A DNA stretch of 64,000 nucleotides from Escherichia coli (GTDB taxonomy: Bacteria; Pseudomonadota; Gammaproteobacteria; Enterobacterales; Enterobacteriaceae), in the NCBI RefSeq assembly GCF_003334785.1, contig NZ_QOWV01000018.1; one strand, given 5' to 3'. Position numbers and translations under genes: made by a program. The notes beneath the pieces are model-generated. The model was not told the origin of the DNA and did no database searches. It saw only the letters and a list, made by a program, of their open reading frames with translations. Within the stretch, counting starts at the first letter, position 1. Each line of letters starts with the position of its first letter. Positions 50,370 to 50,860 of this stretch are shown here, piece by piece.

Positions 50370-50860
50370 GTGTTATTACTTTTTCAGAGTTTACTAAGGA
50401 GAGGTTTACTCGTGGCGATTAATTTCAGCCCTAAGGTTGGTGAAATACTGGAATGCAACTTTGGTAACTATCCTGTTAGCCAAAATGGACCGTTCAGCAC
50501 GACGTATTACGATGGCCGCATTCCTCCTGAAATGATAAAAAACAGGTTAGTTGTCGTGCTCAACGGAAAAATTAATGGCAACGCATGCATCGTCGTTCCA
50601 TTATCAACCACTCGCGACCAGACAAGTTAAAACGTGGAATGCATGTTGAAATAGCCAGTAATGTTATCAATGACCTGCAATTCTTTGATCAGCAGATTCG
50701 TTGGGCCAAAGCCGACCTGGTACAACAAGTCAGTCGAAACAGATTAAACAGAGCAAGGACTTACAGAGGGTATCTTAATCAATGTTTGCCACATGAGTTG
50801 GTTGCAGACATACAGAGGGCGGTCATCAAGTCAATCAATGCCATATCGCTCATAAATTGA
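50370..50860 (+). pseudogene. yifN: PemK/MazF-like toxin remnant split by a frameshift, no adjacent antitoxin
   Basis: Two overlapping ORFs in different frames (50370-50630 and 50585-50860); the first carries a MazF/PemK-like pattern (VAINFSPKVGEILECNFG ... RLVVVLNGK ... CIVVPLSTT); the frame change falls immediately after the STT motif. Confidence 0.6.

Follow-up and report, generated by a model that had tools for sequence, protein, structure and literature searches.

We report that the frameshifted PemK/MazF-like toxin gene between rep and ppiC, located in a 64-kb stretch of Escherichia coli DNA (referred to in its entirety as the window), is followed by a conserved small RNA gene, and we suggest that the two represent a toxin and RNA-antitoxin module in which the toxin has decayed in the K-12 lineage. 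We assign this explanation, taken as a whole, a probability of roughly 0.55. The frameshifted open reading frame (ORF) is already catalogued and the linked small RNA gene is the unannotated part; with it, the supposed orphan toxin would become one half of a two-part module.

The + strand sequence at positions 50412-50860 is, with near certainty, the E. coli K-12 pseudogene yifN (b3777), lesion included, as judged from RefSeq, intact orthologues, Pfam and Foldseek; when repaired it encodes 149 amino acids. RefSeq labels the identical K-12-type sequence a frameshifted PemK/MazF-family toxin, the MG1655 annotation lists yifN b3777 as a pseudogene, and it is handled as such also in PMC4340650. The site has rep on one side and ppiC on the other, which is the same locus as in K-12; an 811-nt region matches PG20180054 (O16:H48) at 100% and a 40-nt stretch across the deletion is identical in K-12-type records. 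Compared with the K-12 pseudogene the ORF shows no difference, while the K-12 annotation lacks the downstream small RNA feature.

Two overlapping + strand ORFs in different frames, together resembling one longer protein, had been described in the first-pass annotation of this DNA, and the ORF finder returns them at 50370-50630 (86 aa) and 50585-50860 (91 aa). That they are one frameshifted gene was borne out by five intact E. coli alleles (O157 Al Ain, CREC-544, O111, cq9 and L3452210II), each of which aligns as a single 149-codon gene relative to which the window copy is short by one T. The annotated and conserved start is the GTG at 50412, a call based on the RefSeq annotation and the conserved N-termini of homologues, and the GTG at 50370 is merely where the ORF finder begins; the upstream in-frame extension (50370-50411, + strand) is thus an ORF-finder product outside the annotated gene and the conserved N-terminus. 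A Shine-Dalgarno sequence read from the DNA, AAGGAGAGG (50397-50405, + strand), ends 6 nt before this GTG, and equivalent purine-rich sites are found in homologues. The start codon of rep is at 50195, not 50246, and the distance from rep is 174 nt to 50370 and 216 nt to the true yifN start; the former fits the 175-bp leader of the first-pass annotation, which was also right that this leader holds no antitoxin ORF.

The inactivating lesion is a 1-nt deletion between 50620 and 50621 (+ strand), where alignments with the intact alleles show GACCATGAC changed to GACCAGAC by loss of the T of codon 70 (CAT, His). The frame switch had been placed immediately after the STT motif; it is indeed near the motif (S65-T66-T67), and its actual site is three codons further on. 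As a result the 5' fragment frame (50412-50630, + strand) encodes native residues 1-69 followed by QTS and a stop at 50628-50630. This fragment retains the residues that align with E24, R29 and T52 of MazF and, according to the secondary structure of the model described below, lacks the remaining barrel and the C-terminal helix. The second ORF (50585-50860, + strand) regains the native frame from 50621 and covers residues 71-149, its first 12 codons being out of frame.

Among the 5,426 complete E. coli genomes in which we counted alleles, 1,228 have precisely this deletion allele, and two allele types that are intact, in the sense of intact at the deletion site, account for 1,082 and 1,616 genomes (~2,700 in total), the 149-aa length having been established in the five alleles read. 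With the yifN locus found in ~4,019 genomes, the deletion affects ~1,228 of these ~4,019. The decay observed in the window is limited to the toxin ORF and to a single E. coli lineage (K-12), and an intact 149-aa yifN is widespread in E. coli and related Proteobacteria. yifN is disrupted in other ways as well: IS1 has inserted into the copy of record H1, several of the E. coli and Shigella proteins are truncated, and one metagenomic copy looks frameshifted.

The gene and the small RNA lie on an accessory segment of 831 bp (50212-51042, no strand assigned) that is absent from ~1,360 of the 5,426 genomes, i.e. approximately a quarter, and where it is missing an unrelated 54 bp separates rep and ppiC. 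Terminal repeats and target duplications were sought at the ends of the 831-bp segment and none was convincing. The strains thereby form a natural set in which K-12 has the RNA only, other E. coli have both parts, and a quarter of the strains have neither.

The PemK/MazF signature that had been read from the first ORF proved to be real. The repaired 149-aa protein matches Pfam PF02452 (PemK_toxin) with an E-value of 1.1e-10 (42.1 bits; residues 38-141 on model positions 15-108 of 109), and the 86-aa K-12 fragment by itself gives E=0.0065. An AlphaFold2 model of YifN (pLDDT 81.8, pTM 0.76) was compared with the PDB using Foldseek and gave 64 matches with E≤0.001; each of the 50 listed is a structure of MazF or MoxT. 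The best of these are MazF-mt1, S. aureus MazF and B. subtilis MazF, with a probability of 1.0 and target-normalised TM-scores of 0.68-0.78 among the best matches. On the strength of this predicted structure, YifN has the MazF/PemK fold. R29 and T52 are the catalytic residues of E. coli MazF and E24 is also a functional residue; using hhalign, YifN E40, R45 and S65 align with E24, R29 and T52 of MazF (E=4e-4, with a probability of only 34%), and all three are invariant across 34 family members. YifN is therefore similar to MazF, PemK (Kid) and ChpBK in its Pfam match, barrel fold and invariant aligned residues, while it differs from the solved MazF proteins in having ~15% sequence identity to them and from MazF (~110 aa) in being longer, with an insertion of 20-25 residues in the first loop. 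Taken together, the sequence and structure comparisons suggest that YifN is an endoribonuclease toxin; our literature searches found no experimental report on YifN cleavage or growth inhibition.

YifN represents a distinct subfamily that is confined to Proteobacteria; a search of 1.84 billion representatives gave 149 clusters at E≤0.001. No match was obtained when the PDB was searched by sequence with the single protein or the family profile, and no NCBIfam model and no PADLOC model, abortive-infection models included, matches the protein. For intact yifN, the deeper comparisons give a dN/dS of 0.03-0.05, and values of up to 0.8 are obtained between closely related alleles, the latter coming from a handful of substitutions. 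These estimates indicate that the intact YifN family is under strong purifying selection.

With respect to a protein antitoxin, neither the region upstream nor that downstream of yifN in the window has a small ORF fit for this role. Nor did any of the 11 neighbourhoods of yifN homologues that we read (E. coli, a Klebsiella-like genome, Serratia, Roseateles, Pseudomonas, Pantoea, plasmids and Winslowiella) have an adjoining protein antitoxin gene, in agreement with the earlier remark that a protein partner is lacking. The neighbouring genes vary between contexts. In comparison with type II systems (MazEF/PemIK), YifN has neither a MazE/PemI-type antitoxin gene nor a two-gene operon. Since the whole family appears to be without a protein partner and under purifying selection where it is intact, yifN is, by these sequence criteria, not the remnant of a decayed two-protein module. 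yifN and the RNA travel together as a module of ~0.8 kb, which in E. coli is an insertion/deletion polymorphism between rep and ppiC and which is carried also by conjugative plasmids of Pseudomonas and Pantoea and by prophage-like contigs.

The small RNA gene is located at 50892-50966 (+ strand) and its product is ~70-75 nt, as delineated with nhmmer, a covariance model (R1), pair counts and the predicted fold. It consists of hairpin 1 (50895-50906, GCC/GGC), a U-rich linker, hairpin 2 (50918-50930, UCCC/GGGA) and a terminator formed by a long hairpin (50934-50961). The two short hairpins are alike, (G/C)CC-loop-GG(C/G), and the RNAs of Roseateles chitinivorans and Rubrivivax have three such units. 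Compensatory changes were identified in hairpin 2 and in the terminator; hairpin 1 is invariant in the main clade, and the changes in hairpin 2 occur in only 3-4 sequences. A long-stem 5' domain, as in the minimum-free-energy fold of the E. coli RNA, was rejected in favour of the two short hairpins because a C-to-A change in Pseudomonas and other substitutions break the stem without compensation. We also considered a small peptide encoded in the region; the ORFs at 50923-51021 (+ strand) and 50850-50993 (- strand) run across the terminator, and a peptide was rejected because either frame would be lost through the single-base indels that separate E. coli from the Klebsiella-like orthologue.

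A predicted sigma-70 promoter for the small RNA is present at 50857-50885 (+ strand), with TTGACA, a spacer of 17 nt and GATAAT, i.e. a match at 11 of 12 consensus positions, and its -35 hexamer contains the TGA that ends yifN (50858-50860). The stop codon is within a TTGA motif in 14 of 24 loci, and the -35/17-nt spacer/-10 geometry is kept in at least 20 loci of other genera. No promoter of comparable quality was found in the region upstream of yifN. The Shewanella RNA points the opposite way to yifN and is equipped with a TATAAT box of its own, and it is therefore an independent unit. No feature is annotated at the position of the small RNA in MG1655 or in the 4,016 E. coli genomes that have it, and Rfam returned nothing at E≤1 over 50100-51200, no family reaching its threshold for the small RNA. 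An sRNA detected by Northern blotting in MG1655 has been described as 'downstream of yifN on the same strand' (PMC4681348), although that paper writes 'yifN (b3775)', where b3775 is ppiC, and its supplement gives no coordinates for the sRNA. Likewise, the text of a Ribo-RET preprint (10.1101/520783) assigns two translation start signals to yifN while the figure legend reads yjfN.

The small RNA begins 29-61 nt past the yifN stop codon in 24 of 24 measured loci and follows each YifN homologue examined down to ~39% protein identity. Such pairs were found in at least 12 named genera of Gamma- and Betaproteobacteria, on conjugative plasmids and on prophage-like contigs. Specifically, R1 scores 84 bits at 50892-50966, which is its sole match in the window, and of the 37 yifN-bearing sources searched with nhmmer and R1, 35 have exactly one strong match downstream of the gene. 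The other two have weak matches at the same position (32.6 bits for a two-domain Rubrivivax variant and 21.9 bits for a divergent Photorhabdus RNA), and the same search of the empty-site locus gave no match. In the clades with 39-42% protein identity the RNA is divergent with the same architecture, the first pair of hairpin 1 having changed from G-C to C-G. Two distant relatives, a 27%-identical copy on a Vibrio element and P0172, which is without the loop insertion, have no convincing RNA match.

Searches begun from the RNA returned sites beside a yifN homologue and no others. Among 21 plasmid records matched, four were read: in three, which are real plasmids, a PemK CDS is directly upstream of the RNA, and the fourth, though filed as a plasmid, is a rep-ppiC piece of a chromosome. 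Metagenome pattern matches confirmed by the RNA model (n=13) are exactly the 13 with yifN upstream, and in E. coli the RNA is present in 4,016 genomes as compared with 4,019 for the locus. The 5' domain of the RNA has a mean identity of 74%, while the flanks are at 56%, equal to shuffled sequence; against the Klebsiella-like orthologue, where dS is ~2, the RNA differs by two single-base indels only. Protein and RNA divergence are correlated (r=0.73), a co-divergence that co-inheritance alone could also yield. The small RNA is thus very probably a functional partner of YifN.

How the partnership works is less certain, and we propose the following. The small RNA would be the antidote of YifN, produced in excess from the stronger promoter, and would bind YifN directly in a type III-like manner with the repeated hairpins as binding units. 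The odds that the RNA acts as an antitoxin seem to us close to even, if slightly short of it; our analysis favours direct RNA-protein binding as the most likely mode over pairing with the yifN mRNA. The K-12 lineage would have lost the toxin half, with the RNA half intact and still expressed, and decay of a toxin-antitoxin pair usually takes this order.

The first-pass annotation regarded the locus as a decaying orphan toxin module with no antitoxin partner. This holds insofar as the toxin ORF has decayed in the K-12 lineage and a protein partner is lacking; the family is intact elsewhere, and given the conserved RNA gene downstream the absence of any partner is probably wrong. For an orphan to be the whole explanation, the conserved downstream sequence would have to be just the terminator and 3' UTR of yifN. 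The element does end in a terminator that must also end the yifN mRNA, and the toxin ORF has been disrupted repeatedly, by the K-12 deletion, by IS1 and in the truncated E. coli and Shigella proteins. However, a plain terminator needs neither a 45-nt 5' domain at 74% identity between flanks at background nor a conserved consensus promoter right before it, and the inverted Shewanella element with its own -10 box does not fit a 3' UTR. Moreover, purifying selection on intact yifN argues that the family as a whole is not decaying, and we consider the orphan explanation improbable. Still harder to credit, and in our view scarcely tenable, is that the K-12 allele remains functional by ribosomal frameshifting or through cooperating fragments. 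Both fragments are open and gene callers report both products, but there is no slippery heptamer at 50610-50630, the C-terminal helix and over half of the barrel are missing from the 5' fragment, the second ORF starts in out-of-frame sequence and lacks a ribosome-binding site, and the RefSeq and MG1655 curators call the gene a pseudogene.

Two further explanations accept the RNA as a gene and give it another role. The RNA could, as in type I systems, pair with the ribosome-binding site or first codons of the yifN mRNA and block translation or trigger decay. A C/U-rich stretch, UUCUCCCCUU, can pair imperfectly with the Shine-Dalgarno sequence, there is complementarity between codons 6-9 (GCCCUAAGG) and the 3' arm of hairpin 2 in E. 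coli, which is more extensive in Photorhabdus, and a U-rich linker followed by a terminator resembles the general layout of Hfq-dependent sRNAs. Cognate RNAduplex energies are, however, no better than those of shuffled RNAs (z ~0 in 15 of 16 loci), the predicted pairing sites are at differing, non-homologous mRNA positions, and the similarity at codons 6-9 reflects a repeat in the same sense; the RNA is transcribed in the same direction as yifN from a separate site and is not antisense to it, and YifN is not a small membrane peptide. Pairing of this kind is therefore unlikely, if not quite to the degree of the orphan explanation. We see more in the suggestion, which we nevertheless doubt, that YifN is no growth-arresting toxin and forms a ribonucleoprotein with another role, e.g. 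one whose RNA acts as substrate, guide or sensor of a specialised RNase serving phage defence or plasmid biology. Consistent with this, the neighbourhoods read show no protein antitoxin anywhere in the family, yifN is stably held at one chromosomal site common to E. coli and a Klebsiella-like genome, plasmid copies adjoin a UvrD-like helicase and an AbiJ/PDC-S32 candidate defence gene, and YifN, with its family-specific first-loop insertion, falls in a phage protein family of no assigned function (phrog_15698). Against it, YifN is invariant at the positions that align with the catalytic and toxicity-linked residues of MazF, the independent inactivations in E. coli, Shigella and the metagenomic copy fit a gene that is costly when unchecked, and YifN is missed by PADLOC.

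Returning to the toxin and RNA-antitoxin module, we tentatively suggest, at somewhat less than even odds, that YifN and its RNA constitute an undescribed module family in which a MazF/PemK-fold RNase is checked by a separately transcribed two-hairpin RNA. If so, an RNA-antitoxin solution would have arisen independently of ToxIN and one class of 'solo' MazF toxins would be explained, the module being borne by plasmids, prophage-like elements and chromosomal islets of Gamma- and Betaproteobacteria. If the RNA is the antidote, YifN would, within the literature searched, be the first MazF/PemK-family toxin with an RNA antitoxin, and there would be a testable answer to why many 'solo' toxin genes survive without a protein antitoxin. 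The literature searches returned nothing on COG3692, on an orphan MazF with an RNA antitoxin, on pCAR1 with PemK or on ppiC with an sRNA.

The idea that solo toxins could be countered by a small RNA acting as antitoxin was raised by Makarova et al. 2009 (PMC2701414). YifN is similar to the solitary MazF of Myxococcus xanthus and the other 'solo' toxins discussed there in having no adjacent antitoxin gene; it differs in having a dedicated conserved RNA gene, none being described for those toxins in the literature searched. Among known RNA families, the YifN RNA has a weak full-length similarity to Rfam RF01772 (rnk_pseudo, the Pseudomonas rnk leader), scoring 20.3 bits in the window, 31.4 on the Pantoea plasmid and 36.9 in Shewanella as compared with a gathering score of 55, and the part in common is the ...UUGAGGG...AAA-CCC terminator region. 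Unlike RF01772, no YifN RNA locus is upstream of rnk; the RNA is instead followed by ppiC, a MerR-family gene, a gene for an ABC-transporter binding protein or other genes.

The closest parallel is with the type III systems (ToxIN, CptIN and TenpIN), in which a Kid/MazF-related endoribonuclease is neutralised by an adjacent structured repeat-unit RNA. As in these, a MazF-fold protein is tightly linked to an adjacent structured RNA with similar hairpins. The type III toxins are ToxN/AbiQ, CptN and TenpN, while for YifN PemK_toxin is the sole significant Pfam family and ToxN does not appear. To our knowledge, each described type III system has a tandem-array RNA upstream of a ToxN-family toxin. 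The YifN RNA, in contrast, is downstream of the gene and has its own promoter, where type III systems use read-through past a terminator, and in place of tandem identical repeats of ~36 nt it is built from two, rarely three, imperfect hairpins.

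The window represents a K-12-type segment of the E. coli chromosome in which gppA (+) precedes rep (-, annotated as 48174-50195), and ppiC (+, 51059-51340) is followed by ilvC (-) and ilvY (+). The first-pass annotation described two overlapping ORFs between rep and ppiC as a frameshifted PemK/MazF-like toxin gene, and both are present (50370-50630 and 50585-50860). This observation was correct and the gene is a known pseudogene: many K-12-type genomes match an 811-bp query over the region at 100% identity and carry in RefSeq the label 'type II toxin-antitoxin system PemK/MazF family toxin, frameshifted', the MG1655 feature is the pseudogene yifN (b3777; 3960012-3960460), and yifN is also termed a pseudogene in PMC4340650. 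The ORF part of the finding was therefore already known, and its interest lies in an unannotated, conserved small RNA gene that adjoins the pseudogene. The conserved yifN start is GTG at 50412 (gene 50412-50860, +), preceded by AAGGAGAGG; a start at GTG 50370 gives a 14-codon extension, which is an ORF-finder artefact. For rep, mechanical ORF calling (48174-50246) adds 17 codons upstream of the annotated start at 50195, so that the ORF list understates the length of the rep-yifN intergenic region.

Alignment with five intact 450-bp E. coli reference alleles (O157, CREC-544, O111, cq9 and L3452210II) bears out the frameshift as the loss of a single T in codon 70, between 50620 and 50621 (GACCATGAC to GACCAGAC). 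The predicted K-12 product comprises residues 1-69 followed by QTS, and inspection of the sequence near the lesion revealed no slippery site able to restore the frame. Allele counts were obtained for complete genomes using three 40/41-nt queries spanning the lesion site: the deletion allele has an exact match in 1,228 genomes, and two allele types intact at this site, GACCATGAC and GATCATGAC, were found in 1,082 and 1,616 genomes, respectively. Shortened products of 109, 111, 113 and 135 aa in protein databases, some from Shigella, together with an IS1 insertion that also disrupts yifN, point to further independent disruptions.

The locus is present in 4,019 of 5,426 genomes; those lacking it (represented by strains 5-1 and FDAARGOS_1300) have a rep-ppiC gap of only 86 bp, with an unrelated 54 bp in place of positions 50212-51042 (831 bp). 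Directly upstream of ppiC there is a diverged 44-nt tandem duplication (50980-51067; TCCCTGACTGACAATTA...GATCATGCTAAAA versus TCGCCGCCTGACAATTA...GATCATGGCAAAA), a copy of the ppiC start region that is single in CREC-544-type strains (46 bp shorter), possibly marking the right-hand end of the inserted yifN module. E. coli UTAK-14 (NZ_CP168998.1, 5402917-5406953) carries approximately 4 kb upstream of ppiC with few long ORFs and no annotated features, and there the query match is limited to the last 39 bases (ppiC start).

The PemK/MazF-like signature noted earlier was confirmed: Pfam PemK_toxin is matched across almost its full length by the repaired protein (E=1.1e-10) and marginally by the first fragment alone. 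NCBIfam, PADLOC and PDB sequence searches with repaired YifN gave no match, even with a 34-member profile, and the family is remote from characterised MazFs; it is also small, with 149 clusters at E≤0.001 in a search of 1.84 billion representatives. An AlphaFold2 model from the family alignment (pLDDT 81.8) has MazF-mt1, S. aureus MazF and B. subtilis MazF as best structure matches (probability 1.0; target-normalised TM-scores of 0.68-0.78 among the best matches; identity ≈15%), the main difference being a 20-25-residue insertion in the first loop of YifN, modelled with low confidence. In a profile alignment with E. coli MazF, YifN E40, R45 and S65 correspond to MazF E24, R29 and T52, and these three residues, like G10, C15, K43, P63, R111 and Q135, are invariant throughout the family. 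The dN/dS is 0.03-0.05 between appreciably diverged E. coli lineages and relative to a Klebsiella-like orthologue in the same rep-ppiC slot, and reaches 0.8 between close alleles with very few substitutions. Judged from these sequence comparisons, intact yifN is a functional, constrained gene.

The first-pass annotation also regarded yifN as an orphan without a partner. This stands for a protein antitoxin, in that none of the 11 neighbourhoods compared, including those of intact orthologues and homologues, has a conserved small protein gene; however, a conserved small RNA adjoins yifN, and the reading is probably incomplete. The neighbours change from context to context: rep and ppiC in E. coli and the Klebsiella-like genome, a lipoprotein gene and a MerR-family gene in Serratia, unrelated genes in Roseateles, numerous small ORFs of unknown function on Pseudomonas plasmids and islands, a UvrD-like helicase and an AbiJ-like gene on a Pantoea-type plasmid, and an ABC-transporter binding protein in Winslowiella. 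On the Pantoea-type conjugative plasmid (loci L021-L023 and L053) the yifN homologue is divergent from genes for a 660-aa UvrD-like helicase (PADLOC 'Helicase', E=5e-31) and a 212-aa uncharacterised protein, and converges on an AbiJ-NTD4/PDC-S32 candidate defence gene. In E. coli, too, yifN and the gene for the UvrD-family helicase Rep are transcribed divergently; such neighbours may reflect coincidence or a defence-island context. On IncP-7-type Pseudomonas plasmids and islands (L005-L008 and L051; pCAR1 84.4-87.5 kb) the module lies within a run of co-oriented small hypothetical ORFs, with an orphan N-6 DNA methylase after them, which could be a plasmid leading-region or anti-defence type of neighbourhood.

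Specifically, an element of approximately 75 nt follows the yifN stop codon in seven of seven unrelated contexts compared. In the window it covers 50892-50966 (GTAGCCCATAGAGGCCCTAAGTTTTCTCCCCTTGAGGGACCTGCGAAGCCCGGATTTTCCGGGCTTTTGCC) behind a promoter at 50857-50885 (TTGACA-17-GATAAT; 11/12 consensus positions) with the yifN stop codon inside its -35 box. Scanning 100,044 species genomes with the protein as the starting point yielded 24 loci from Pantoea, Serratia, Chimaeribacter, Xenorhabdus, Photorhabdus, Pseudomonas, Shewanella, Cupriavidus, Roseateles, Legionellaceae, Rubrivivax and Herbaspirillum. More than 20 loci share the promoter geometry, the RNA begins 29-61 nt (median 32) after the stop codon, and in 14 of 24 loci a TTGA motif encloses that codon. 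Using nhmmer and a covariance model (R1), exactly one strong match per locus was found at the same position, except for a variant in Rubrivivax with two domains (32.6 bits) and a divergent copy in Photorhabdus (21.9 bits); R1 has a single match in the 64-kb window and none at the empty-site locus. The Shewanella element is inverted with its own TATAAT box and is therefore a separate transcription unit. The same layout is retained in the divergent RNA of divergent protein clades with 39-42% identity, which come from prophage-like contigs of Photorhabdus and from a metagenomic contig.

Searching with the RNA first matched 21 plasmid records, of which four were read: pCAR1, p1448A-A and a Pantoea plasmid have a 450-bp PemK/MazF CDS directly upstream, and the remaining record, although filed as a plasmid, is a chromosomal rep-ppiC fragment. 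Likewise, a pattern scan of metagenomes gave 13 matches that R1 confirmed and 12 that it did not; all of the former and none of the latter have yifN upstream, and the 12 were attributed to chance. The E. coli genomes with the RNA number 4,016, compared with 4,019 for the locus, and in none of them does the RNA carry an annotated feature. A Northern-detected sRNA reported in PMC4681348 as lying downstream of yifN on the same strand fits the element, but the number given there for yifN, b3775, is that of ppiC. Vibrio tectivirus-class elements of ≈13.5 kb (phage 10N.239.311.A09_PE001, L085, record 1-2302) carry at their end a PemK-like gene of 27% identity, immediately preceded by a cro-like gene and an 89-aa gene described as LexA/signal-peptidase-like; the R1 match there is weak (15 bits), convergent and 220-310 nt downstream, and the partner in this distant clade may be a different one.

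The 5' 46 nt of the RNA show a mean identity of 74% across 24 loci, compared with 56%, equal to the shuffled baseline, for the 46 nt past the terminator, and RNA and protein divergence are correlated (r=0.73). Synonymous sites are saturated relative to the Klebsiella-like orthologue (dS about 2), yet two single-base indels are all that separates the RNAs; together with the absence of a start codon, these indels rule out an encoded peptide. In model-based alignments the 11-bp terminator stem has four covarying pairs, the 4-bp hairpin 2 shows C-G to U-A and U-A to G-C changes, and the 3-bp hairpin 1 is invariant in the main clade (GCC/GGC) with its first pair flipped in divergent clades (CCC/GGG). 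The two hairpins are alike (CCC-NUNGA-GGG), and since Roseateles chitinivorans (L045, 3037-3144) and a Rubrivivax MAG (L047, 3037-3143) have three such units in an RNA of ≈107 nt, the 5' domain is modular. No Rfam family covers the RNA; the Pseudomonas rnk leader (RF01772, rnk_pseudo; gathering score 55) shows sub-threshold, full-length similarity (36.9 bits for locus L042, 719-824; 31.4 for L053, 1476-1581; 20.3 for window 50879-50967). The 5' arm region GCCCTAAGTTT (50905-50915) is a same-sense near-copy of yifN codons 6-9, GCCCTAAGGTT (50428-50438), possibly mimicking an mRNA site.

YifN and the small RNA are obligatorily linked and move jointly, and we consider the RNA to be a functional partner of YifN (probability roughly 0.85). 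Its promoter is much better than that of the toxin, and K-12 has lost a working toxin half but kept an intact RNA half, the pattern expected when a toxin-antitoxin pair decays. A metagenome contig (Ga0213828_1000393, 3007-3455; L064) has a yifN homologue that appears frameshifted (two tblastn segments in different frames) and a downstream RNA whose score remains at 78 bits, which would make it a second case of toxin decay with the RNA retained. That the RNA neutralises YifN, as an antitoxin in the strict sense, is a tentative proposal, to which we give even odds or slightly less. A different role for the pair, e.g. as defence sensor or substrate, is compatible with the candidate defence genes adjoining plasmid copies and seems unlikely to us. 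As to how neutralisation might occur, base-pairing with yifN mRNA is not supported, as duplex energies are no better than for shuffled controls and predicted sites are not conserved, and this favours direct RNA-protein inhibition, in which the repeated hairpins would serve as binding units. The proposed direct inhibition of YifN by the RNA is modelled, by analogy, on type III systems.
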